64,000 bases of DNA from contig JAWOCD010000090.1 of the NCBI GenBank assembly GCA_046483985.1, positions 58,294-122,293 on the forward strand. The letters are read 5' to 3'. Source of the stretch: Promethearchaeia archaeon (GTDB taxonomy: Archaea; Asgardarchaeota; Lokiarchaeia; Sigyniarchaeales; SOKP01). The position numbers and the translations under genes were made by a program. A model generated the notes under the pieces. The model saw only the letters and a program-made list of their open reading frames with translations. It did not search any database and had not been told where the DNA came from. Shown here piece by piece: positions 44,165 through 57,951 of the stretch. The number at the start of each line of letters is the position of its first letter. The stretch's first letter is position 1.

Positions 44165-45586
44165 TCATTTAGACTTCGTAGTTAAATTCTCTTCTTTTAA
44201 CATATTTTGCTTTTTTTGTTCATGTAATTTATCTATTTTTTCCTTTATCTCAAAATAGCGTTCCTTTGTAATGGGAAAGCCCAGCATGGATAGGATTCCA
44301 ATTCCGAGGAAAATGGAGGGAAAAATACACATTAAGGCCCTTAACCCAAAAATTGTGTTCTCAGTGATATCCTCTGGGACAAATACTTTCCAACCGACAC
44401 TATTGAATACCAGATTTATGGTTAAGATAATTCCAATGGTCGCTAGACGAATGACTAATGCGTTTATTCCCATGTAACCGCCTTCTCTCCGCACACCGGT
44501 TTTTAATTCATCTTCGTCGATAATGGCCGATATTGTAACTGCGCGAAAAAATAATGCTCCCGCTAATCCTAAACCGGTTAATGCATAGGCAAAAATTGCT
44601 CCCATAAAAGTAGATATAAACATGAATGGTATAAGCGTAATAATAAGGGACAACATTGCCAAGATGTGACCAATTCTGACCCCAAATTTGATGGTTACCT
44701 TATTCCAGATTATCATACATCCGCCGGCCGAAATGAAGGTCAATCCTAACAGAAGGGACAATATGGTAGAATCCTCAATTTGAAGTACGAACCGCCCATA
44801 TAACGGAGACATCATTGGCAGCATGCCGAACATATAAAAAACAGCAAAGTTTGCAATGACATATCGCCGGAAAGATTTATTTTTAGCAGAGGTCTTTAAC
44901 GATTCTATAAAAGAAGGGGCTATTTCGGAATCCTTTGAATATTCCTTCCTCTCTTTCAGTCCGTATTTTATAAATATAAAGGCTGAAACTGCGGTTACTA
45001 TTGCCATAAATAAGCCTGCCACCGCGTAATTTACTTGATATTGGGGGTTGTTATAATCAGGGATAAAAAAGCTTGGTGTGATAAATGCAAAGATTAGGGC
45101 AACAATTCCCACGACTTGAATAATATTATTAGCCCTTGCTCTTTGGTTCACATTGGGATACATTTCTGGAAACAGAGACACTTGATTGAGACTAAACATT
45201 GTATAAAAGAGGTCAAAAAGTAAGATCATGATCATCATGTAGATAAACGCCGCGAGTTCACCTGCTGGAGGAGTCCATAGGAGGAATAAAATTATACACA
45301 TGGGCCCTACACCTAATAAAATCCACGGCTTTCTTTTTCCTATTTTTGTGCTGGTCTTGTCAGAGAGCGTGCCCAAAATTGGGTCATTTATCGCATTCCA
45401 GATTGACCAGATGATAAATGCAAGTGTGATCCAATTCACATTTAAGCCGACGATCACGAAATAAAATGTAAAGAGCAGAAAGGAAAAGAATTGCGAAGCG
45501 GTGATGTCGGCAAAATTGGCAAAGCTATAAGCAACAGCGGTTTTGGTTGAAAACTCTTTATCTTCTTTATCTTTATTTTTCATCAT
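44165..45586 (-). CDS. MFS glycoside-pentoside-hexuronide (MelB/GPH) transporter
   Basis: WNAINDPILGTLSD, GKRKPW, IIDEDELKTGVRREG; about 12 TM. Confidence 0.92.
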   Translation of the reverse strand: MMKNKDKEDKEFSTKTAVAYSFANFADITASQFFSFLLFTFYFVIVGLNVNWITLAFIIWSIWNAINDPILGTLSDKTSTKIGKRKPWILLGVGPMCIILFLLWTPPAGELAAFIYMMIMILLFDLFYTMFSLNQVSLFPEMYPNVNQRARANNIIQVVGIVALIFAFITPSFFIPDYNNPQYQVNYAVAGLFMAIVTAVSAFIFIKYGLKERKEYSKDSEIAPSFIESLKTSAKNKSFRRYVIANFAVFYMFGMLPMMSPLYGRFVLQIEDSTILSLLLGLTFISAGGCMIIWNKVTIKFGVRIGHILAMLSLIITLIPFMFISTFMGAIFAYALTGLGLAGALFFRAVTISAIIDEDELKTGVRREGGYMGINALVIRLATIGIILTINLVFNSVGWKVFVPEDITENTIFGLRALMCIFPSIFLGIGILSMLGFPITKERYFEIKEKIDKLHEQKKQNMLKEENLTTKSK

Positions 45587-46120
45587 TTAGACCCAGATTA
45601 TATATACAATTATTCTTAATATACTTAAAGAATATATTGCTTTTTTTTCTTTTTTATTTTCCCTAAATCCACCAGAGGCCAAAAACAAATTATCGGAAAA
45701 TAATATATCCCCTCTCCCCTAAGGCTTGTAGTCATTTTTCGATTGACGCCAGAAATCCCGTTAACGGATTACCATCCATCATGAGTTTATCTAAGCTTAT
45801 AAGGGTTTTTAGCGATTCGGGGGCGATTCGTTGGTTGATTTAAGGTAAGTTTAAATACCTCACTCACATTAGTAAGGGGCTAAATCGATTATGGAAGGGC
45901 GGTTAAGTTATTATCCTCCAAATTGAGAGGTTCTAAATTGATAAGGGAACATAGAGATTCAAGAAGAGTGTTATAAAAATGATTCTGTTGGTTTTTATGC
46001 CTCTCTTTTAAATTTCAGTTTTGTTAACATGGTTTCACAGAATTAGAGAACCTTCTGAAAGTAAGAAGTTTATTGAAAAATCCTATTCATACGTTAAAAT
46101 GTACAATCTTTACAAAGGGG

Positions 46121-46351
46121 TTAATAAGGCGTTAAAAAGGTATATTTTGTGAGGTTAAATTTTTCCACCTTTAAATCTGGTATGTCTGTTTTATTATGTT
46201 GCCCTACAATTAATGGATGTTTAATCACTATTTTAAGATCTTCAACATATAAATTATCAAAGAAAACATGGTGTCTCTTATCAAAGTCAATAAATTTTTT
46301 GAACTTCTCTTGTTCAGGAGTTCCGTTCTTTTTAGTTTTTAATTCTAACAT
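46121..46351 (-). CDS. Small hypothetical ORF or gene fragment
   Basis: 76-aa ORF; an ATG two codons upstream follows a GGAG SD-like sequence; lies in a 1.2-kb otherwise non-coding gap. Confidence 0.35.
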   Translation of the reverse strand: MLELKTKKNGTPEQEKFKKFIDFDKRHHVFFDNLYVEDLKIVIKHPLIVGQHNKTDIPDLKVEKFNLTKYTFLTPY

Positions 46352-46781
46352 TATGAATTTCTCCTTTTTTTGCTTATTTTATTATACGATTCTCAATGTC
46401 AAAATGGATAAATAAAGGCTATTATTATATTCTATAAATTTTGTCATGCAAGTCTAAAAGTCAACATTTGGATTCCTTTCCTATATCTTGACATCGCATA
46501 CAGACATTTACTATTCGTTTTTCGATAATGTTTAAAAAACCATAGAATAAAGGAATTATTTCAGTTCATTTTACCAGCGCTTTCTAAAGCCTTATTATTA
46601 CTGTATCAAGTGGCATATCCATATTAAACATAGAATATTCTGAATAGTAAAATGTACAATTAGGTAAGAATCTTGCCATTCTGTAATTCTAAAAAAAAAT
46701 CTGCAATTCTAAAAAATTTAAAATTATCTTAAATAAAAGAAGATATAAAGTATTAAACGATTAAAAATAGGATTTTAAAAT

Positions 46782-47957
46782 ATGACTCAAGATTCCTTTT
46801 TACAAAAGATTGTTTGTACCAATTGCAATGCGGATTATAATGCTGATGAAATCCATAATGTATGTAGATCATGTGGGAAAGTTTTATTCCCTAAGTATAA
46901 TATCGAAAAAGCGAAAGAATATCTCTCTAAGGATCAAATCCAGCAAAAAAAAGTGTACAATATCTGGCGTTTAAATGAATTAATGCCTGTAAGGGAACCG
47001 AAGTTTCGAATATCACTTGGAGAAGGGTGGACACCGCTTGTTAAACTCGATAATTATGGCAGTGCTTTCGGGTTAAAAAACTTATATTTGAAAGATGAGG
47101 GACAGAACCCCACTGGTACGTTTAAAAGTCGTGGTCTTTGTTCTGCAGTTTCAAGAGGAAGAGAATTAGGAATACAAGACTTTGTCATCCCAAGCGCTGG
47201 TAATGCTGGAGCGGCATTATCTTCTTATACAGCTCATGCAGGTGTTAATTCTCATATCTTTGCACCTGAAGATGCGCCTGAGTTTATTCGAAAGGAAATA
47301 GAGGTAATGGGGGGAGACCTTGTATTAGTTGATGGGTTAATCGATCACGCAGGAGAAAAAGCAAAGACCGCTGAAAAAGAGAACGGATGGTTTTCTGTTT
47401 CTACTCTAAAAGAACCTTATCGGGTGGAAGGCAAAAAGACGATGGGGTTTGAATTGGCTGAGCAATTGGATTGGACATTACCAGATGTTATTATCTATCC
47501 GACTGGTGGGGGAACGGGAATCATAGGCATGTGGAAAGCCTTTTCAGAGCTAGAGGAACTTGGATTAATTGGTAGTAAAAGACCTCGTATGGTTTCTGTC
47601 CAACCAGAAGGATGCCAACCAATTGTACGAGCATTTGAGCAAGGAAAAAAATTTGCTGCCAAATGGGAAGATGCTCATTCTTTTGCTGGAGGAATACGGG
47701 TCCCTTCAGCGATTGGGGATTATTTAATCCTTCAAGCCTTAAGAGAATCCGATGGAACCGCTATTGCTGTTCCCGATTCTGACATTAAAACAGCAATGTA
47801 CGAGTTAGCCAAACAAGAAGGAGTCATGTTATGCCCTGAAGCAGCCGCAACGGTTGATGCAGCAAAAAAATTACTTAAAAAAGGGTTCTTAGATAAAGAT
47901 GAGAAAATTGTCTTATTTGGGACTGGCTCTGGACTAATTACCCCCAATGAGTGGTAA
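46782..47957 (+). CDS. thrC: Threonine synthase (PLP fold II)
   Basis: SLGEGWTPL, KDEGQNPTGTFKSRG (PLP Lys), SAGNAG, RVEGKKT, PTGGGTG. Confidence 0.9.
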   Translation: MTQDSFLQKIVCTNCNADYNADEIHNVCRSCGKVLFPKYNIEKAKEYLSKDQIQQKKVYNIWRLNELMPVREPKFRISLGEGWTPLVKLDNYGSAFGLKNLYLKDEGQNPTGTFKSRGLCSAVSRGRELGIQDFVIPSAGNAGAALSSYTAHAGVNSHIFAPEDAPEFIRKEIEVMGGDLVLVDGLIDHAGEKAKTAEKENGWFSVSTLKEPYRVEGKKTMGFELAEQLDWTLPDVIIYPTGGGTGIIGMWKAFSELEELGLIGSKRPRMVSVQPEGCQPIVRAFEQGKKFAAKWEDAHSFAGGIRVPSAIGDYLILQALRESDGTAIAVPDSDIKTAMYELAKQEGVMLCPEAAATVDAAKKLLKKGFLDKDEKIVLFGTGSGLITPNEW

Positions 47958-48221: not shown

Positions 48222-50252
48222 CTAAATATTTTTAATTCCTTGGAATAATTCTGTAAATTCTGACCCTTCTCGATAAAATACGGGGGGTTTTCCTATGGGC
48301 GCGTCGATGTTGTGCCATCCTTTTAAAAACTTCTTATCGCTCCAGACGTGGATCCATTCATTGCTCGGGAGATATACTTCCCACTCCTCTTTGTTCTCCT
48401 TTATGACGGGAGCCACTAAGAGATCCCTCCCAAATAGATATTGATATTTAATGGAGTGGACTACTTTATCATTTTCATAATGTAAGAATAAAGGACGCAT
48501 CGGCGAGATTCCCGTTTTTTGATACTGATCGGAAATCCTCTGCAGATAAGGAGTTAAATATACGTGTATTTGAGACATCTTGGCCAGGTGCTGCAATATC
48601 TCCTCACTCGAATCGAATTGGACATTATTTTTGGGTTGGTTTCCCTCATGCGTTCGCATTAACATGGTAAACACGCTCTGCTCCGCCCATCGCATCATAA
48701 TTTCTTCATTTCTGGTGAAAAAAGGCTTAAAAGTAGTGTAGCCGCCGATGTCCGTGTGATGGTATCCTACTCCGCAGATTCCAACAGATAGTGCCGCGGG
48801 AATAACTGATGCAAGTCCGTCGTCCATACTGAATGTGGGAAGTTGGTCACCACCCCATTCCATGGTGGTGTATCGGGAGGTGTGAGAATATCCCGACCGG
48901 GTAAAATAGACAATCTCTTCCAATTTCCCCGCCTCTTTTATTGCTTCGTAATTTGCTTTTTGCCAATCGACCGGATATTGGTTATGATATTCTTTTGGAG
49001 AAACTCCGGAATGAAGCACCGCATCCATGGGTAAATACTCTCCGTAGTCGCTCATCCAGCCGGAGAGTCCCGCCTCTTCGATCATATATTTTTTCATAAC
49101 CCTTTTTATCCATTCGTAAGCCTCTGGATTTGTTAAGTCCACAAGAGCAGCGGGAAATGTGGTCACGTAGATCATATAGTCCTCTCCTTCTTGATTCTTT
49201 ACGCAATAATCTTTTTCCTTCGCCACCTTGTAAAGATCACCTTCTGTGTGCAAGAACGAATTTATATATCCTAAATATTTAAAACCTCTATTGTTTATCT
49301 CCTTTACAAAATCGGGAAACTCCGGAAATCGGACCTCTCGTCCTCCTCCATTCCATTTCCAGTCCCAAAATAATTGAGTTCCAAATTTGGTCACATTAAT
49401 CCCTTCCCAGTCTTGACTCCAGATTGCCCCTACCTTGATTCCCGCATCCAATGCAGTCTTTAAGCGCTCGCTTACCCGTTTCTTTCCGCCTCTTCCTTGG
49501 ATTGCCAACCACATTCCATCATATACCCAATTCGGTAATTTCGGTTGGATCCCGTTTAATTTAGCTAAACCGCTTACCGTCTCACGAGCAGATTCGAATT
49601 TATTGATTATAAGTTTTTGGGGATTTCCCCAGAAATAGAGATGATGCCTGTGCTTTTTTTTGAAATTAAATTCCGCATAAACCGTGCTTTCTGCATGCAC
49701 ATAGTAATTCGCACTGGAAACAAATGATGGTTGTACGTGATACGAGGTATACCAATGACCTCCTGCTTTTGCGACCAGATTCAATAGCCATGTAATAATT
49801 TTGGGGTCTCCGCGTCCTATCCCTTGCTCACTTACCCATATTGGAACTTTCTTACCTCGTAAATTCAGTTCCGAAAACTGTTCTCCACAGCCGTAAATTG
49901 CCTCCTCAGGAGTCGCGTGAAGATTAATTCCATACCGATTGAAATCCTTTTGCGATGGATTTAAACTGATCTCCAATTTTCCTTTACTGATATTGCAGAT
50001 CATTTCAACTGTAGAATCCTCCCCATAGAACTCAATCGATATATGGTTTTCTTTTTCTTGTAGAATCTTAAATTGTGTTAACGCGTATTTTTCATCAACC
50101 TTGTCTTTAAACTTAAAATGTCCATGTTTTTCCTTGATCTTACTATGTCCCATTCCAACGGTTAGAATGGGGTGTTTTGTATCGTGTGAAAAGAGGAGAT
50201 GATCTTTAAAATATAAATTAAATTTTTGGTTATTGATTTTCTCAATTCTCAT
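48222..50252 (-). CDS. yihQ: GH31 glycosidase, sulfoquinovosidase (YihQ)-like
   Basis: YGCGEQFSELNLRG, WSQDWEG...FGTQLFWDW, GWMSDYGEYLP (nucleophile Asp), WGGDQ (acid/base), HTDIGGYTT, MRTHEGN. Confidence 0.85.
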   Translation of the reverse strand: MRIEKINNQKFNLYFKDHLLFSHDTKHPILTVGMGHSKIKEKHGHFKFKDKVDEKYALTQFKILQEKENHISIEFYGEDSTVEMICNISKGKLEISLNPSQKDFNRYGINLHATPEEAIYGCGEQFSELNLRGKKVPIWVSEQGIGRGDPKIITWLLNLVAKAGGHWYTSYHVQPSFVSSANYYVHAESTVYAEFNFKKKHRHHLYFWGNPQKLIINKFESARETVSGLAKLNGIQPKLPNWVYDGMWLAIQGRGGKKRVSERLKTALDAGIKVGAIWSQDWEGINVTKFGTQLFWDWKWNGGGREVRFPEFPDFVKEINNRGFKYLGYINSFLHTEGDLYKVAKEKDYCVKNQEGEDYMIYVTTFPAALVDLTNPEAYEWIKRVMKKYMIEEAGLSGWMSDYGEYLPMDAVLHSGVSPKEYHNQYPVDWQKANYEAIKEAGKLEEIVYFTRSGYSHTSRYTTMEWGGDQLPTFSMDDGLASVIPAALSVGICGVGYHHTDIGGYTTFKPFFTRNEEIMMRWAEQSVFTMLMRTHEGNQPKNNVQFDSSEEILQHLAKMSQIHVYLTPYLQRISDQYQKTGISPMRPLFLHYENDKVVHSIKYQYLFGRDLLVAPVIKENKEEWEVYLPSNEWIHVWSDKKFLKGWHNIDAPIGKPPVFYREGSEFTELFQGIKNI

Positions 50253-50365
50253 TATTTATTCCCATTTATACTCATTATGCGTATTATAATCTTTATGATA
50301 TTCAATTGCTAATTACATTAAAAAAGAAAATATAGCTTAAAAAATTCTATATATTGTTTTTCCGG

Positions 50366-51685
50366 CTATTTTATGACCTTCCAGCCATTGATCTTTGCAA
50401 ATATCTCGAGCGGTTTGATGAAATCTCCGTAGGCTACGGAAACATGATGTGCAATCCCGTTTTCAATGATTTTGTCTAATACCGTCCGTACTCCATCTTC
50501 AAATTTTGCTTTCAGATAGGTTCCGCTCAGTTCTTTTTCCATGGGGATTCCTTCTCCCAGTTGTAAAAAGAGGCGATATTCATTGGGAGGAGCATAGTCC
50601 ATCCGCAATAAGGAAAAATCTCCTGCTTCCATCACAAATCCCGCAGTTACTCCTTTCCCCCCCGCGAAATAGGTATCTAAGGTCCTTTTACATTTTCCAT
50701 CCCATAAATTACATGCTGCCACCCCACAATGCCATAAAAGGGCGAAATCCTCCTCAAAATTGACTTGAGAAAAATCTGCGAGAAATGGTGTTTCTGCTCC
50801 GATTGCTTGATGGGCTAACATGGAGATGCTTCCTAAAATATCCCCCTCACAGGTCAGAATCTTTCCTTCCGACTGTAATATTGACATTGCCGCACACGGA
50901 GAAATTCCAAATTCATCGGCAAATTCTGGCCAACATCTAATAGCGACTGATGTTAAATTATTCTCTTCTAAAAAGTTATCAAATTTAGCCGTTAATTCAG
51001 CAACCTTCTGGAGTTGTTGCTCATCGATTTTGGAAATATCAAAAATAGACTTTATTTGCTCCTTTCTCTCGGCGGTTGTCTCTTTTTCTACGGGGTGCTC
51101 AAATACTGAATTCAGTTCATAATGATCGATTAAAATTCCCAGCTTTCTACAGAGGTCTAATTCATCTACATCTAAATTGAAAAACCCTCGCGCTCTATAA
51201 CCAATAATCCCGATATGAGCCTCATTTAAGGCTTTAATGATCCGGATGGCATCTAACCAATCTTCATTGATTTTATCTCCAATTACGACATGGAAATTTC
51301 TGATACCCGCTTTATAGAGATTGGATGCATTTAGATTTACCCCACAAACGGAATTCAACCTGATTCGTCCTCCATCATACGGGAGTTCATCTAACCCCCA
51401 TAATAAAAGCGGCTTTTTTAGGACTTTATTTAGTTCTAGTATTAAATGTCCTAAAGCAAAGGTCCCGCTGATACAGATTAGACCATCAATTTGATCTTTA
51501 GCGAAGGAATTTGCCGCCTCTTGCGCGTCTTCAATCTCAATGACTAAATTATCCATGAAGTTCCATTCAACGGCTTCAATGTGCTTTAAATCGTCTTGAA
51601 TTCCCTCGTATAGCTCTTGCGCAGCTTCAAAATCGAAGGTTTTCCGTGCTAAACAGACTACTCCAATTTTAATTTGTTTTTTCAA
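50366..51685 (-). CDS. L-fucose/L-arabinose isomerase-family protein, probable sulfoquinovose isomerase (SqvD/SftI-like)
   Basis: LNSVCG, AIRCWPEF, TCEGD, LWHCG, AHHVSVAYGD; genomic context with GH31 and transaldolase. Confidence 0.8.
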   Translation of the reverse strand: MKKQIKIGVVCLARKTFDFEAAQELYEGIQDDLKHIEAVEWNFMDNLVIEIEDAQEAANSFAKDQIDGLICISGTFALGHLILELNKVLKKPLLLWGLDELPYDGGRIRLNSVCGVNLNASNLYKAGIRNFHVVIGDKINEDWLDAIRIIKALNEAHIGIIGYRARGFFNLDVDELDLCRKLGILIDHYELNSVFEHPVEKETTAERKEQIKSIFDISKIDEQQLQKVAELTAKFDNFLEENNLTSVAIRCWPEFADEFGISPCAAMSILQSEGKILTCEGDILGSISMLAHQAIGAETPFLADFSQVNFEEDFALLWHCGVAACNLWDGKCKRTLDTYFAGGKGVTAGFVMEAGDFSLLRMDYAPPNEYRLFLQLGEGIPMEKELSGTYLKAKFEDGVRTVLDKIIENGIAHHVSVAYGDFIKPLEIFAKINGWKVIK

Positions 51686-51743
51686 TTAATGACACCAACT
51701 ATTAAATTTTTAAATTCAACTCTACTATTAAATTCAACTTTAC

Positions 51744-51967
51744 CACTAGAATGCGAGAATGCCCCGACCTTCAGGGCGGGGATAAATCACACATACATTT
51801 GTAAACGATTAATACAATAAAAATATTGATAGATGATAACCAAGTTCCTCGTGTAACCGCAAGGACTGGGGGGTTAGCGTTTGAAGCATATCTGTAAGAC
51901 TTGTGCACTTAGACAAGCAACTGTAATGAATTATGATTCCATCGCCCTATAGGGCGTGGTAGTTCAA
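51744..51967 (+). mobile_element. Non-autonomous IS200/IS605 derivative with both ends (224 bp, PATE-like)
   Basis: Target TTAC (51740-51743); left hairpin CCCCGACCTTCAGGGCGGGG (51762-51781); right hairpin CCATCGCCCTATAGGGCGTGG (51939-51959); ends in GTAGTTCAA; no ORF. Confidence 0.85.
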
Positions 51968-52019
51968 TTCTCCATAACCGTAATTTCGGTAACTTCAGAA
52001 TTTCTTAACGTTGGAAAAT

Positions 52020-52946
52020 TCATGCAATGATTAAAGTAATCAACCACATCAACGCAAATGAGATGGTTATCGTCAAATTCACAATGATCCCCGTCAGTTT
52101 TTTTAATTTATCGCTGTATTTATATTCTACGGCAAACGGAACCGTGGCCATCCCCACCGGAAGAATTAGTCCCACCAACAAGATGGTCCGGTATAAATGG
52201 CTGTAAGGTAAGGCAAAAAATAAAATCAATCCTACTGTTAAGCCAAACCCATATCGAATTGCCAAAACCTTCATGACACTGACCCATTCAGATTTTTGGA
52301 ACTTGAAATTGAGATAAATTCCGAGCAGTAGGAGGGTTAAGGCCATATTTGCGCGGGAAAGAACACCAATTAGTTCAGATAAGAAGAGAGGGAATTCAAA
52401 CCCGAACAAGTTCAAAATTACTGCGATAATAAAGCTGACCAAGGGAGCAGAGCTCACCAGCTTTTTTAAAATATATTTGCCGTTTATTTTACCGTCTTCG
52501 CCATTTTTTGGAGAAAAGATCGCCGCGATTACATAGCACAGAATAAATACTACAAAAGCATTGCCGAAGTCAAATAATGCGATATGCTGTAAGCCCTCTA
52601 TTCCCCAGATGCCTTCTATTATTGGGTAGGCAAAAAGCCCGATGTTATACCCGATGCTGGTCATTAAAAGAATCCCCTTTACTTGCCGATCGTAGTTTTG
52701 GAATAACACAAATCCGACGGAGACCACCATGACAGAGAACCCAAGGGAGATAAAAAACAACAAAAATAATTCTGACACTAATTCTAAAGTGGTAATAACA
52801 TCAAAAATAAGGGCAGGCAAGGTCACATTGAGAATAAGTTTTGCGATACCCTCGCCTTCTTTCTCGGTAATAATGTGGGCTTTTTTGATCACATATCCGA
52901 TGAGAATTATGGTGAGGGATAAAAAGAAAACTAAATTGGGATTCAT
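52020..52946 (-). CDS. AEC (auxin efflux carrier/malate permease) family transporter
   Basis: LNVTLPALIF, YNIGLFAYPI, LLLLGIYL, LPVG; about 10 TM. Confidence 0.88.
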   Translation of the reverse strand: MNPNLVFFLSLTIILIGYVIKKAHIITEKEGEGIAKLILNVTLPALIFDVITTLELVSELFLLFFISLGFSVMVVSVGFVLFQNYDRQVKGILLMTSIGYNIGLFAYPIIEGIWGIEGLQHIALFDFGNAFVVFILCYVIAAIFSPKNGEDGKINGKYILKKLVSSAPLVSFIIAVILNLFGFEFPLFLSELIGVLSRANMALTLLLLGIYLNFKFQKSEWVSVMKVLAIRYGFGLTVGLILFFALPYSHLYRTILLVGLILPVGMATVPFAVEYKYSDKLKKLTGIIVNLTITISFALMWLITLIIA

Positions 52947-52990
52947 TGTGTTTTTCCCTTGGTAAAAGATTAAAAATAAAAAAAATTAAA

Positions 52991-53659
52991 TTATAGATCT
53001 CCTATTTCTGTGTCGTCCCATGCGTTTTGGAAGATTTTCAGCCCTTTATCGGTAAACGGATGCTCAAAACTCTCCTTATAGACATCGAAGCCAGCGGTAA
53101 CGACATCAGCGCCCATAATTGCCGCATCAACAATTTGTTTCCCGTTCCTGAGGGCCGCCACGATGACCTCAGTATCAAAGCCATAAAGATTGTAGATTCT
53201 CATAATATTGTTCACCAGTAAGGTACAGTCGACTCCGGAAGCTTCTTGCCATCCGATAAACGGAGAGCAATAGGCGGCGCCGATCCGTCCTACTTGGAGA
53301 GCTTGAGACGCCGTAAATACTAAGGTCACGTTTACGGGAATCCCGTCCTTGCTCAGTTTCTTAGTTGCAATCAACCCTTGTTCATTACACGGGATTTTAA
53401 TGGCGAAATTGTCCGAAAGGCTCGCGATCTTCTTTCCTTGTTCTATCATTTTCGCGGCTTTTTCGATATGAGGATCAATTTCCACCGAAATCGGGAAATC
53501 AATATCCTTAAATTCCTCGGCAAATTCTTTTACGACCGTAAAAAATGGTTTTCCGCATCGTTTTACATGTTTCGGATTAGACGTGACACCGTCGATACCC
53601 CAATTTTCCAGAGCATACTTAATTTCGTCTATTTTTGCACTATCTAAAAAATACTTCAT
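52991..53659 (-). CDS. Transaldolase/FSA-family enzyme, probable sulfofructose transaldolase (SqvA/SftT-like)
   Basis: FLDSA, GVTSNP, IKIP (Schiff-base Lys), NVTLVF; SPFIGW has Trp where phosphosugar transaldolases have Arg (SPFVGR); AALRNG. Confidence 0.85.
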   Translation of the reverse strand: MKYFLDSAKIDEIKYALENWGIDGVTSNPKHVKRCGKPFFTVVKEFAEEFKDIDFPISVEIDPHIEKAAKMIEQGKKIASLSDNFAIKIPCNEQGLIATKKLSKDGIPVNVTLVFTASQALQVGRIGAAYCSPFIGWQEASGVDCTLLVNNIMRIYNLYGFDTEVIVAALRNGKQIVDAAIMGADVVTAGFDVYKESFEHPFTDKGLKIFQNAWDDTEIGDL

Positions 53660-53844: not shown

Positions 53845-56800
53845 TCATTCAAATTGGATGGGTTCCAAAAACCCCGTCTCTCTTAGATCGTATATATTTG
53901 CGATTATCTTTTCCTTTGGCGTCTTTTCCATCATTGACATCAAATAGTTTAATAATTTGCTGATAAAGAATGCTTCGGTATCCTCCTCTAATCTCCTTGC
54001 TACCGAAATAATTCGCTTCTGGAAATTACTCAGATCGATTGCGGGCGGGGTCTTATTAACAACGTGTGGGTTATTGAGCGTTAAATTAAATACGTCATTA
54101 ATCAATTTCTGGTAACCTTCGAATCCTGCTAAATCCCCTCTAAAATCCTTAAGAGGTTTTTCATAAGCGGTTTCAAATTTTTCTATAAATTCATCTAATT
54201 CCCCCTTTAGATTTTCAGAAGGTGCACCGCCTAAAATTAAACCGACTCTTATATATTCACCGTCTTTCAATAATATTTGATAATCTTGGTAATCTAATGT
54301 GGTAATGCTTCTCTTTCTTCGCTCGGTATCGTTTTTAATTTCGTACTTGAAGTTTGTTATGGCATGCAAAAACCCACTGATCAAATCGCCATCAAATTCT
54401 ATCTGCCCATAATTTTGCTTGATAAGAGCCACCCCCCCTTCCTTATGGATTACCAAGATATACTCCACGTTAATTGCGTCTAAGAAATACCCCGTCTTTT
54501 TTTGCCATTCTTTTTCTAGCTTTTTCTTTTTGGATCTTCGATAAAGTCCATATCCCGTCAATGCAATAACCGTACCTATTAAAAAGGGTATATACGGTGT
54601 GATTTCATTTACAAATTGTTCGCTTGGAGATCTCACTTCGATATTTTTCTTAGTCTGTTCTGCAGATCTATACTGAGCTGTGCCATTATAGATTATGCTA
54701 AAATCGAAGGATTTCACCTTTTGAATTGCATAATCCGTTTTTGCGTATCCTTCATTATCTGTGGTTGCAGATAAGGTTTCCTCCTCAATGCTTCCGTCTT
54801 CATAGATTTTTGTGATTATTATCTTTATCTCCTGGTTCTGAATCGGTTTGTCCCCCGTGGCGAGTTTAAATTCAAATGAAATAGTGTCTTCCCATACATA
54901 AGAATCTCTAATCTTCGTTAAAAGTTTTAAAGATGGTGTTTCTTTTTCCAATACGGTTATATTTACCGAATTTGTCACGGATTGATAATGCTCAGCCGTC
55001 ATATTAATATGTACTTCATATTTTCCGGGGTCTAAATCTTTGAGGTCTAATAATCCTTCATACCATCCGAAGTCTGAGGCTAATTCCGAGAAATAGTTTG
55101 AATACGGCAGACCTTCGATTTTCATCCGTACATTTGCGTTTACAATATCTTGATGTCTAAATGTATCTTTAAGGACTACCAGCATTTCTAATGTTTCTTC
55201 TTGATACAAAGATTGATTTTGGTAATCTTCGGGAATGGAAATCTCTGATGGATAAGCCCAAAAAGTAAACTCGAAATCTTCTTTTGCTTCCTTATAGCTA
55301 ATAGACCCGTCTCTTGAACGGTTTGCTACAATGCTTAAATTATAGTATCCAATATCTAAATAATTGAGGTCAAATGTTATATTGTAGTTATCCGAAGACT
55401 CTTCTATATCATAACTCTTGGTGGGAAGGGACGTAGTTTCATTATAAAGTTGAAAATTGGCGTCTGTTAAATTTTCCTCGTTTTCCGTATCATTATATCT
55501 CATTGAAATCCATGTAGGATCGCCAGCGATCACACGGGTGGATGAATTAGATAATATAGAAAGTTTTGTCGTGCGTGGTTCGCTAACTATCTTAAGGGTA
55601 TCGTTTTTGTTATTTTCAGAATAAATTCCTTCTTTCTCAGTATAGAATTCGATTGTGATATTTTTCAATTCTTTGTCCTCGTACAAGATATCCGTAAGAA
55701 TCGTCACGTTATAATTCCCTTGATTATCGTCCGATATTCGATATGCGGCAGACTCCAAAACTTTACTTTCACCGCTTAAGTTGGTTTTAAGACTAAGTTC
55801 CATTCCATCGAGCCCCTCCCCTGTGCGACTATCATTCAAATATAATGAGTATTTTGCATAGTCTCCCAATCGGTAAATTCGGTTTGGATTATCTGCTCCC
55901 TTGATCGTTAAATTGTGAGAGCGAAAATCCACCTCTAAATTGTCATAATGGTGTGTAGAGTTGTTGTAGTATTGATTTTCAATGGTAATATTCAGAGAAT
56001 AGTTGCCAGCTTTAAAATAATCATGACTGGTATCCAATGTTATGTTAAAATTTCCCGTTTTATATCTACTCACTTTATATTCCTCATATTGGTCTAAAAG
56101 ATTCCAAGCCCCCGAATTATACTGGGCGTGAATAACGATATTCTCGGGATCTATGTTTTCCCCGTTATATTCGTTTTGTAACGAGAAATTAAAATTGGCT
56201 TGCTCGTTTTTCAATACTTGAGACTGTGCGTCCAAAAGCGTCAGGTTCAGTTCTGAATTGACAACATTAAAGGAGGTACTACTAATACCGGCTATTGTTC
56301 CATTGGATGTCATTAGTTGTACGTCAATTTTGGAGTTATTTTCGGTAATGGATGTGTTTAAATCGGGTCTCCAGAGCGGAAACTCTACATAATTATCGGT
56401 AACTTCCTTTTCCTCCGAGATCTCCGAGGTGTCTGAATAGATATTCATCCAAGCACTGCCTTCGTCATTTTTTAAGGTACTTGAGATATTGATGTAATCA
56501 GTAATATTAACATTAGCAAGGGCAGATATATTATACCACTTTTCTTTCTTAGAACTCTTTTTACAATCTATGTGCTCAATAATGTTATATGTCTGGTTGA
56601 ATATTATATTCCACTTATGATTAGTCGCGTTGAGAATATCCACATAATCTGAATTTTCATCCGAATCGGTATAAAAAGAACTTTCATTGTAAGTTGAATT
56701 ATGTGCCCAGTAGTTGGGTTTAAAGAATCGTGCCTTTTTGTTATAAGCAGCATCAGGAAACTGTTGAATTGAGAGCGATGAGTTCCATAATACGTCCGTG

Positions 56801-57951
56801 TTTAGAGATGCGTTGAATGTATTTGATGAGACTGTATTGTATCGAAACTGACCTTCAAAGGTTACATCATACTCCACTGGAGAAAACCACGGAGAGTGGA
56901 TGGGAATGTCAAATGTATTACTCTCATGCGGATAAAAGGTATGATTTTGATACAACCCAGAGTTATTTACATCTGTATTAAATACCGTTAAATTTACTTG
57001 CTGGGGATCTGGCGATTTATTTAGAGGATCGAGGTTGACTTTCATCATCCCGTTCCTCCCAGTTTGTTGACTCCATACCTTCGAACCTGAATCTTTGTAA
57101 AATCTAAGATTGTATTCATCCCCACTTTGGTTATTTGCATAATAAAAATAAGCATCTTGAGCGTCTACCCCCCAACTAGGAAAATCAATGGATTCAAAAA
57201 CAGCAAAGAAGGTTCTATTGTAGGTATTTGAGATATTGAGCATTCTTTGGGAGAAATTTGCTTGATACCATCTCGCGGGTTGATCAAGATTTTTCTCGGT
57301 AAGATCAATTATTGTTTCATCTTGTGATTTGTTTATTGGACTATCAGGTTCAATTTTACTGGTATTAAGAGTCGAATTGTAAATATTTATTGAGAATTTA
57401 GAGGGCGAAGGATTACCATAACTTCCAAATGTATTATTCCCTCCCCAATATTGTAAAAAGAGGGAGATATTATTCAAATAGCAGGTATTTGGTACCGTAA
57501 ATGAGGTGGCGTAGCGAACTTCTTCCTCGCTAAACGTATCCGATCCATCGTTTCTAATTTCAAAGGGCACATATTTCCCAGTCGTATGAAGTCTTGTGAA
57601 ATTTAATTCAAAATCGGTCATGTTCCATTCCGATTGGGGATAATCTGGATTATCAATAGTTAACCCCCCGTCGGATGTGCTCTCTTCTTCATATCCTTGC
57701 TTTCTTGTATGATATAATGAAACATTTTGCGGATTTCCCGCGTTACTTAGACTTCCATTTGCAATCGTGCCCGCATTCTTTAGCGGGTCAGTATTGAAGT
57801 CTAAATCGTTTTCTGGATTTTTTTCTATTTTACCAGAATTTACCGTATTTCTAGGCAATTTTGGCATAGGCATTAGTAGAATTACCGAGAACAAGAAAAC
57901 CGTAATAATTATGATATTTCTAATTTTTTTTAAATTCTCCATAAAAATCAA
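53845..57951 (-). CDS. Large cell-surface protein: N-terminal TM/signal, ~1100-aa beta-rich extracellular region, TM helix, cytoplasmic longin-like plus winged-helix tail
   Basis: IIIITVFLFSVILLM; many NxS/T sequons and Ig-like GxYxxxI repeats; TM YIPFLIGTVIALTGYGLY-RRSKKKK; tail ILVIHKEGGVAL...DLISGFLHAITNF...FIEKFETAY. Confidence 0.85.
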   Translation of the reverse strand: MIFMENLKKIRNIIIITVFLFSVILLMPMPKLPRNTVNSGKIEKNPENDLDFNTDPLKNAGTIANGSLSNAGNPQNVSLYHTRKQGYEEESTSDGGLTIDNPDYPQSEWNMTDFELNFTRLHTTGKYVPFEIRNDGSDTFSEEEVRYATSFTVPNTCYLNNISLFLQYWGGNNTFGSYGNPSPSKFSINIYNSTLNTSKIEPDSPINKSQDETIIDLTEKNLDQPARWYQANFSQRMLNISNTYNRTFFAVFESIDFPSWGVDAQDAYFYYANNQSGDEYNLRFYKDSGSKVWSQQTGRNGMMKVNLDPLNKSPDPQQVNLTVFNTDVNNSGLYQNHTFYPHESNTFDIPIHSPWFSPVEYDVTFEGQFRYNTVSSNTFNASLNTDVLWNSSLSIQQFPDAAYNKKARFFKPNYWAHNSTYNESSFYTDSDENSDYVDILNATNHKWNIIFNQTYNIIEHIDCKKSSKKEKWYNISALANVNITDYINISSTLKNDEGSAWMNIYSDTSEISEEKEVTDNYVEFPLWRPDLNTSITENNSKIDVQLMTSNGTIAGISSTSFNVVNSELNLTLLDAQSQVLKNEQANFNFSLQNEYNGENIDPENIVIHAQYNSGAWNLLDQYEEYKVSRYKTGNFNITLDTSHDYFKAGNYSLNITIENQYYNNSTHHYDNLEVDFRSHNLTIKGADNPNRIYRLGDYAKYSLYLNDSRTGEGLDGMELSLKTNLSGESKVLESAAYRISDDNQGNYNVTILTDILYEDKELKNITIEFYTEKEGIYSENNKNDTLKIVSEPRTTKLSILSNSSTRVIAGDPTWISMRYNDTENEENLTDANFQLYNETTSLPTKSYDIEESSDNYNITFDLNYLDIGYYNLSIVANRSRDGSISYKEAKEDFEFTFWAYPSEISIPEDYQNQSLYQEETLEMLVVLKDTFRHQDIVNANVRMKIEGLPYSNYFSELASDFGWYEGLLDLKDLDPGKYEVHINMTAEHYQSVTNSVNITVLEKETPSLKLLTKIRDSYVWEDTISFEFKLATGDKPIQNQEIKIIITKIYEDGSIEEETLSATTDNEGYAKTDYAIQKVKSFDFSIIYNGTAQYRSAEQTKKNIEVRSPSEQFVNEITPYIPFLIGTVIALTGYGLYRRSKKKKLEKEWQKKTGYFLDAINVEYILVIHKEGGVALIKQNYGQIEFDGDLISGFLHAITNFKYEIKNDTERRKRSITTLDYQDYQILLKDGEYIRVGLILGGAPSENLKGELDEFIEKFETAYEKPLKDFRGDLAGFEGYQKLINDVFNLTLNNPHVVNKTPPAIDLSNFQKRIISVARRLEEDTEAFFISKLLNYLMSMMEKTPKEKIIANIYDLRETGFLEPIQFE

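Follow-up and report, generated by a model that had tools for sequence, protein, structure and literature searches.

Do Asgard archaea degrade sulfoquinovose, a sulfur-containing sugar abundant in the membranes of plants and algae? The question is raised by four genes in a 64,000-nt stretch of DNA (hereafter the window, to which all coordinates refer) from a Promethearchaeia archaeon (Sigyniarchaeales; SOKP01; assembly GCA_046483985.1, contig JAWOCD010000090.1). The genes encode a transaldolase, an AEC-family transporter, an isomerase and a glycosidase of family GH31. Together they probably constitute a gene set for transaldolase-type sulfoglycolysis (the sulfo-TAL or sulfo-SFT pathway) in a Lokiarchaeia-type Asgard archaeon. 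The output of sulfoquinovose is about 10 billion tons per year, and according to a 2026 review no pathway for its degradation has been characterised in archaea. Our search of the literature on Asgard archaea or Lokiarchaeota in combination with sulfoquinovose or sulfoglycolysis returned no paper on archaeal sulfoglycolysis, the hits being studies of glycan biosynthesis plus a single general review.

The four genes are intact, occupy positions 48222-53659 and follow each other head to tail on the minus strand in the order transaldolase, AEC, isomerase, GH31. The transaldolase-like protein of the SftT/SqvA type (52991..53659, 222 aa) belongs to the Pfam family TAL_FSA. The transporter (52020..52946, 308 aa) is a member of Mem_trans, PF03547. 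The candidate SftI/SqvD-like sulfoquinovose isomerase (50366..51685, 439 aa, TTG start) matches NCBIfam model NF048012 and, weakly, Pfam Fucose_iso_C. The candidate sulfoquinovosidase (48222..50252, 676 aa) contains three Pfam GH31 domains. The intergenic gaps are 44, 334 and 113 nt in the same order, and each of the four open reading frames (ORFs) is full length relative to its homologs. The first-pass annotation had described four co-oriented genes here; its ORFs were correct, and Pfam confirms its families. The motifs that it listed are all present, SPFIGW in the transaldolase and the others as SQDW, FGTQLFW and DIGGY in the GH31 protein. The arrangement is not due to chance, since the same genes are adjacent or nearly adjacent in more than 20 other Asgard genomes.

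Among all PDB sequences, the best matches to the transaldolase are structures of the Bacillus megaterium (Bm) sulfofructose transaldolase BmSF-TAL (8bc3, 8bc4 and 8bc2; 308-312 bits, residues 1-217), whereas the next ones are ordinary small transaldolases (at most 159 bits) and fructose-6-phosphate aldolases (at most 84 bits). Lys89 of the Bm enzyme forms a Schiff base with sulfofructose, and the aligned residue, K88, is retained. In the SPFIGW motif, Trp (W137) replaces the Arg of the phosphate-binding SPFxGR motif. The alignment with BmSF-TAL (PDB 8bc2-8bc4, 8c4i; 311 bits over 217 residues) thus preserves the equivalents of Lys89, Asp6, the Trp of SPFxGW and Arg172 (R171 here), the difference being that Arg30 is replaced by Lys. 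All 120 close homologs share W137 and R171, and all named ones among them are proteins from Asgard metagenome-assembled genomes (MAGs); Lys at the Arg30 position (K30) occurs in 115 of the 120 and also in a bacterial-type cluster, L055.

A library of 1.8 billion cluster representatives contains two relatives of this transaldolase scoring 277 and 267 bits, with other full-length proteins at about 167 bits or less. Both have GH31, YihU-like reductase and DUF4867 genes in the neighbourhood, and one of them also isomerase and TauE exporter genes. The source genome encodes a second transaldolase on another contig (C106), which is 39% identical to the cluster protein and has the motifs NPTL and SPFIGR. 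As the C106 protein has SPFIGR and passes the model TIGR00875 (299 bits), while the cluster protein fails it (183 bits), the former is by sequence a separate housekeeping transaldolase and the latter a dedicated paralog.

The GH31 protein passes the NCBIfam equivalog model of YihQ, PRK10426, with 841 bits against a cut-off of 553. It matches the PDB sulfoquinovosidases 8r56, 5aed (YihQ) and 6pnr (Eubacterium rectale SftG, which has been assayed on para-nitrophenyl sulfoquinovoside) with 618-653 bits, and the next GH31 with 134 bits. Scores against all solved sulfoquinovosidases of E. coli, Agrobacterium (A. tumefaciens) and E. rectale (5aed/5oht, 5ohs/5ohy, 6pnr) are 505-653 bits in full-length alignments. 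The two enzymes therefore fall where the first-pass annotation had put them: the transaldolase groups with BmSF-TAL and not with fructose-6-phosphate transaldolases (311 vs 159 bits), and the GH31 protein with YihQ and SftG rather than ordinary alpha-glucosidases (652 vs 134 bits, PRK10426 passed).

The published sulfoquinovose recognition residues, in E. coli YihQ numbering, are Q288, R301, W304 and Y508, and the catalytic pair is D405 and D472. The alignment shows that the window enzyme keeps Q262, Q288, W304, Y508 and H537 together with the Asp nucleophile and Asp acid/base, D405 and D472 being invariant in 120 GH31 homologs. It differs from the solved enzymes in having Gln for Arg301, Thr for Lys300, and an insertion GGGR followed by an additional Arg, R308. 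The replacement of Arg301 by Gln had been recognised in the first-pass annotation; its rendering of the known motifs as QRWY or KQWY was wrong, as the published form is Q/E-RWY with Q262/K245 as a partner. The enzyme is of the YihQ type and probably works as a sulfoquinovosidase, but because of the Gln we do not call it a canonical one.

This substitution is common. Among the best 120 GH31 homologs the R301 position is occupied by Gln in 62 and by Arg in 56, and Y508 is replaced by Phe in 57; the triads are QWY (45), RWF (37), RWY (19) and QWF (17). The published RWY signature thus fails to capture some four-fifths of the YihQ-type proteins in this sample, which bears on gene-centric surveys of sulfoquinovose degraders: as the canonical form is in the minority among the nearest YihQ-type proteins, surveys based on motifs or primers may undercount sulfoquinovosidases. 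A GH31 with Gln301 is also encoded in a cluster of Spirochaeta isovalerica with a split transketolase, RpiB, an aldehyde dehydrogenase, an ADP-forming CoA ligase, an ABC importer and DUF4867, which is the published sulfo-transketolase gene set. Another is found in L055, where the genes encode GH31, transaldolase, reductase, isomerase, DUF4867 and TauE. Gln301 is therefore tied to two kinds of sulfosugar cluster, sulfo-transketolase and sulfo-transaldolase, and is no argument against a sulfosugar substrate.

Lys300 is absent from the GH31 subclade of the window enzyme, which includes the protein of Candidatus Lokiarchaeum ossiferum. The four-residue insertion GGGR (contributing R305) and the Arg three residues further on (R308) are seen only in this Asgard subclade, and these two Arg residues may compensate for the missing Arg301. 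In a FastTree tree of 117 GH31 sequences, all 17 named Asgard rows fall into one 81-row clade (local support 99%), apart from a 36-row group with all six named bacterial rows; the tree is midpoint-drawn, takes in only the best matches to the window protein, and a minority of its rows are named. Arg/Gln and Tyr/Phe switch several times inside the 81-row clade.

The only curated relative of the isomerase is SftI, in keeping with the first-pass annotation. Over 436 aa it shares 50% identity with the L055 isomerase (L055:9521-10849). The NF048012 model of SftI is narrow, since this isomerase from a bacterial-type cluster also scores just 191 bits. A search of PDB sequences gave no meaningful match. 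The AlphaFold (AF2) model (predicted local distance difference test score 89, predicted TM-score 0.92) has an AraA/FucI-like fold, matching L-arabinose and L-fucose isomerases in Foldseek with TM-scores of up to 0.86 (0.85 for L-arabinose isomerases).

For each of the three enzymes, the nearest homologs are proteins from Promethearchaeia MAGs, 84-90% identical. The source genome (4.06 Mb in 128 contigs, 97% complete, estimated contamination 4.8%) is placed in the same order as Ca. L. ossiferum (CP104013.1). The 122-kb contig carries Ras/Rab-like GTPase genes near the cluster, one gene of the Ras family being 4.6 kb upstream of it. Among 400 Asgard species genomes, orthologs of the transaldolase (63-80% identical) are present in 38, those of the isomerase in 47, and YihQ-type GH31 proteins in 54. 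They are mostly adjacent, usually in the order transaldolase-isomerase-GH31 with gaps of tens of bases. A cluster-linked YihU-like reductase is encoded in nine of the 400 genomes, including that of the cultured Ca. L. ossiferum; it is 51-66% identical to the reductase of L003, the locus whose layout (transaldolase-reductase-AEC-isomerase-GH31) is closest to that of the window. In the closed genome of Ca. L. ossiferum the order is transaldolase-reductase-FKBP-aminotransferase-AEC-isomerase, directly beside Vps4, ESCRT-II and EAP30 genes, and the GH31 gene (NEF87_002515) is 1.2 Mb away. Given the nearest homologs and a closed genome, the assignment to an Asgard host is sound, and the survey of Asgard MAGs that the first-pass annotation had suggested found the core genes in many of them.

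Other genes adjoin the cassette in some of these genomes. A sulfofructose-type transaldolase gene stands beside sulfatase and sulfotransferase genes in one of them (G276, contig C10, L021:7384-10439), with the isomerase and GH31 genes 16 kb downstream. GH2, GH3 and GH4 glycosidase genes adjoin several cassettes (L024:185-3509, L033:6202-8340, L034:10166-11557). In G133 (L035:7114-9030) a gene for an alpha/beta-hydrolase, which might deacylate sulfolipid, is located between the AEC and transaldolase genes.

The proposed pathway would begin with import of sulfoquinovose or sulfoquinovosyl glycerol by a GPH/MFS_2 sugar:cation symporter (44165..45586, minus strand, 473 aa; Pfam MFS_2, 178.7 bits; TIGR00792). 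Sulfoquinovose would be freed by the cytoplasmic YihQ-type GH31 and converted to 6-deoxy-6-sulfofructose by the SftI-like isomerase. The transaldolase, forming a Schiff base at Lys88, would then move the C1-C3 dihydroxyacetone unit to glyceraldehyde-3-phosphate, yielding fructose-6-phosphate for glycolysis and leaving 3-sulfolactaldehyde. These three enzymatic steps we consider, from homology and gene linkage, to be quite probable. Finally, sulfolactaldehyde would be turned into a C3 sulfonate for export, with the AEC protein as the proposed exporter. For Ca. L. ossiferum and similar relatives the conversion would be a reduction to dihydroxypropanesulfonate by the cluster-encoded YihU-like enzyme; in the window genome it could be an oxidation to sulfolactate by proteins encoded on contig C59 (see below).

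The bacterial gene set comprises SftA, SftG, SftI, SftT, SftD or SftR, SftX and SftE (Frommeyer et al. 2020, PMC7491151; PMC11968277). Like the clusters of Bacillus (Priestia) aryabhattai SOS1, P. megaterium DSM 1804 and Eubacterium rectale, the window cluster encodes homologs of the three core enzymes, namely a GH31 of the YihQ type, an isomerase of the SftI family and a transaldolase of the sulfofructose type, and an MFS/GPH symporter gene is nearby. The YihU-like reductase of the sulfo-TAL clusters of anaerobic Clostridia is present in Asgard relatives of the cluster. On the other hand, the host here is archaeal, the candidate exporter belongs to the AEC family instead of TauE, neither DUF4867 (SftX) nor a regulator is seen, and no reductase or dehydrogenase gene is included, the candidate replacement being a tungsten-type oxidoreductase module. 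The GH31 protein has Gln at Arg301, and the isomerase reaches only about 230 bits with the curated SftI model. A genome-wide search with PF16161 for DUF4867 was empty, but it was silent in control genomes too and is thus uninformative.

The candidate enzymes for sulfolactaldehyde differ between Asgard genomes. In genome G172, a gene for an aldehyde:ferredoxin oxidoreductase (AOR) is located between the transaldolase and isomerase genes, and AOR genes lie within or beside the cluster also in G275, G273 and G271. Orthologs of the G172 protein (at least 66% identity) were found in 10 of 135 genomes of the same family; all ten carry sulfosugar genes (base rate about 25-37 of 134) and none has the cluster-type reductase, but since these genomes are related, and so not independent, and the pattern was noticed post hoc, the association is offered as a hypothesis. 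The window genome has an ortholog, 70% identical, which is on contig C59 and is not linked to the cluster. It is part of a trio (C59:51679-55251; L056:7679-11251) encoding a 162-aa polyferredoxin, the 613-aa tungsten-type AOR and a 418-aa protein with a weak match to the LarA N-terminal domain. G275 has the same trio within its sulfosugar cluster (L057), and the 418-aa protein is 58% identical to its counterpart there. That the C59 module replaces the reductase in the window genome, oxidising sulfolactaldehyde, is a tentative suggestion from this distribution. A role of the LarA-like protein as a 2-hydroxyacid (sulfolactate) racemase is pure speculation.

Other candidates for this step were considered. 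PF03446 matches in the genome are phosphoglycerate dehydrogenase, ProC and the like, and were rejected as YihU relatives. The aldehyde dehydrogenase encoded on contig C74 is of the generic succinate-semialdehyde type (270 bits to the solved sulfolactaldehyde dehydrogenase of R. leguminosarum, 8c54, the top match having 301), and was retained as a bare candidate and not as a sulfolactaldehyde-specific enzyme. Three iron-containing alcohol dehydrogenases are candidates of no particular specificity. A different gene was observed in three Asgard genomes (L029:6096-7148, L030:8838-9890, L058:6997-8067): a sulfite-oxidase-type molybdopterin domain is fused to a DUF4079/cytochrome-b561-like membrane domain. 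The fusion gene sits between or beside the transaldolase and isomerase genes, and may mean sulfite handling or a further route of aldehyde oxidation.

Orthologs of the AEC transporter, 40-51% identical, are encoded inside the cluster in L003, Ca. L. ossiferum (L019), G151, G133, G282 and G275. Its role is proposed from this linkage, and we consider export of a C3 sulfonate and some other function to be about equally plausible. In G238, G162 and G151, orthologs of the GPH symporter (48-65% identical) are encoded no more than a few kb from the cluster, and an MFS_2 gene also flanks L003. Bacterial sft clusters use the MFS symporter SftA, and the GPH protein is a probable importer of sulfoquinovose or sulfoquinovosyl glycerol. 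Five paralogous GPH/MFS_2 genes surround the transaldolase-isomerase-GH31 cassette on contig C3 of G169 (L020:10553-19141).

The GH31 and symporter genes of the window are separated by a gene for threonine synthase in the opposite orientation (46782-47957). It was considered as a cysteate synthase and rejected, the product being an ordinary ThrC (PRK08197, 564 bits; TIGR03844, 82 bits), and is treated as unrelated. The 1.2-kb gap upstream of it (45587-46781) contains a 247-nt stretch 74% identical to contig C60. Immediately upstream of the transaldolase gene, a 1368-aa ORF (53845-57951) has only a weak WxLIP match and no apparent link to sulfosugars.

The gap between the AEC and isomerase genes contains a dispersed repeat of about 230 bp resembling a miniature inverted-repeat transposable element (51739..51967). 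A blastn search of the whole genome with 51686-52019 found about 20 full-length copies on other contigs, 69-86% identical, plus partial copies. The corresponding gaps in related clusters are only about 10-90 nt. The repeat is intergenic and interrupts no ORF.

Several observations weigh against the assignment to sulfoglycolysis. The R301-W304-Y508 sulfonate signature is present only in part, Arg301 being Gln, and no assay of an Arg301-to-Gln sulfoquinovosidase variant was found in the literature. The transaldolase reads NPKH where the Bm enzyme reads NPRH, with Lys at the position of Arg30, a putative member of the Arg-Trp-Arg sulfonate triad. The sole NCBIfam match of the isomerase, NF048012 (SftI), extends over the full length but scores 231 bits against a cut-off of 700. 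The cluster contains neither a sulfolactaldehyde reductase (YihU/SftR) nor a dehydrogenase (SftD/SlaB), and no TauE exporter. The first-pass annotation had noted that the enzyme for sulfolactaldehyde is missing from the cluster, and this stands. However, the absence extends further, as a protein query and PF03446 found no YihU-type enzyme in the whole 97%-complete genome. The proposed substitute for it, AOR, comes from the post hoc association described above, and the repeat between the AEC and isomerase genes may split the transcript.

One possibility is that the cluster breaks down another C6-modified or 6-deoxy glucoside, and that the altered pockets (Gln301, Lys for Arg30) fit a different substituent. 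The spread of Gln301 and Phe508 among the best GH31 homologs, the additional loss of Lys300 in the subclade of the window enzyme and the low score of the isomerase speak for such a substrate. However, GH31 proteins with Gln301 occur in clusters with sulfonate hallmarks, either the sulfo-transketolase set with DUF4867 or TauE with a YihU-like reductase, and the R/Q and Y/F variants share the same transaldolase and isomerase partners within one Asgard clade. Moreover, Trp and Arg171 are retained in the transaldolase, whose sequence is much nearer to BmSF-TAL than to any other transaldolase, and the GH31 subclade of the window enzyme has gained two Arg residues in the insertion beside the motif. 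We consider this alternative improbable.

About as little weight is given to the idea that the gene set is an incomplete or decaying remnant, in which the reductase has been lost, a mobile repeat has moved in, sulfolactaldehyde has no way out and the pathway is unused. Indeed, the closest layouts, L003 and G151, have a reductase gene between the transaldolase and AEC genes where only 44 nt remain here, the search of the genome for a YihU-type gene was negative, and the repeat occupies the AEC-isomerase gap. Yet none of the four ORFs is disrupted or truncated and catalytic residues are kept, the repeat lies outside them, and the genome retains the AOR module proposed to take the place of the reductase in relatives, as well as one aldehyde dehydrogenase and three iron-containing alcohol dehydrogenases. 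As most Asgard cassettes have no reductase, its absence is the common state. Still less likely, indeed barely credible, is that the contig is bacterial DNA misbinned into an Asgard genome. The assembly has 128 contigs and 4.8% estimated contamination, and the pathway was previously known only from bacteria; but Ras/Rab-like GTPase genes lie beside the cluster on the 122-kb contig, each of the three enzymes has its nearest homologs among Asgard MAG proteins, every named row of the 81-row GH31 clade that includes the window protein is Asgard (17 of 17), and orthologs are found beside ESCRT genes on the closed Ca. L. ossiferum chromosome. The assignment to transaldolase-type sulfoglycolysis is supported by homology, diagnostic residues, the separate housekeeping paralog and the conserved linkage in many Asgard genomes.

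Specific to the window are the GH31 with Gln301 and the insertion, the loss of the reductase, the insertion of the repeat, and the unlinked AOR module as the candidate last step. A broader and more doubtful proposal is that several Asgard classes degrade sulfoquinovose in anoxic sediments by an old, Asgard-wide transaldolase route, and that in lineages like that of the window sulfolactaldehyde is oxidised by a dedicated tungsten-type AOR instead of an NAD-linked enzyme. Sulfoquinovose breakdown by Asgard archaea is directly testable, since genes for the transaldolase, reductase, AEC transporter and isomerase and for a GH31 are present in the cultured Ca. L. ossiferum. Asgard archaea are the closest prokaryotic relatives of eukaryotes, and little is known from experiment about their growth substrates. 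A conserved sulfosugar pathway, if real, would point to a definite substrate derived from the detritus of algae and plants, and dihydroxypropanesulfonate or sulfolactate would be a metabolite that these archaea could pass to sulfonate-respiring partners. If the AOR route operates, sulfoglycolysis would give reduced ferredoxin for syntrophy based on H2 or formate, and the exported C3 sulfonate would feed the sulfate- or sulfite-reducing partners co-cultured with Loki-type archaea.

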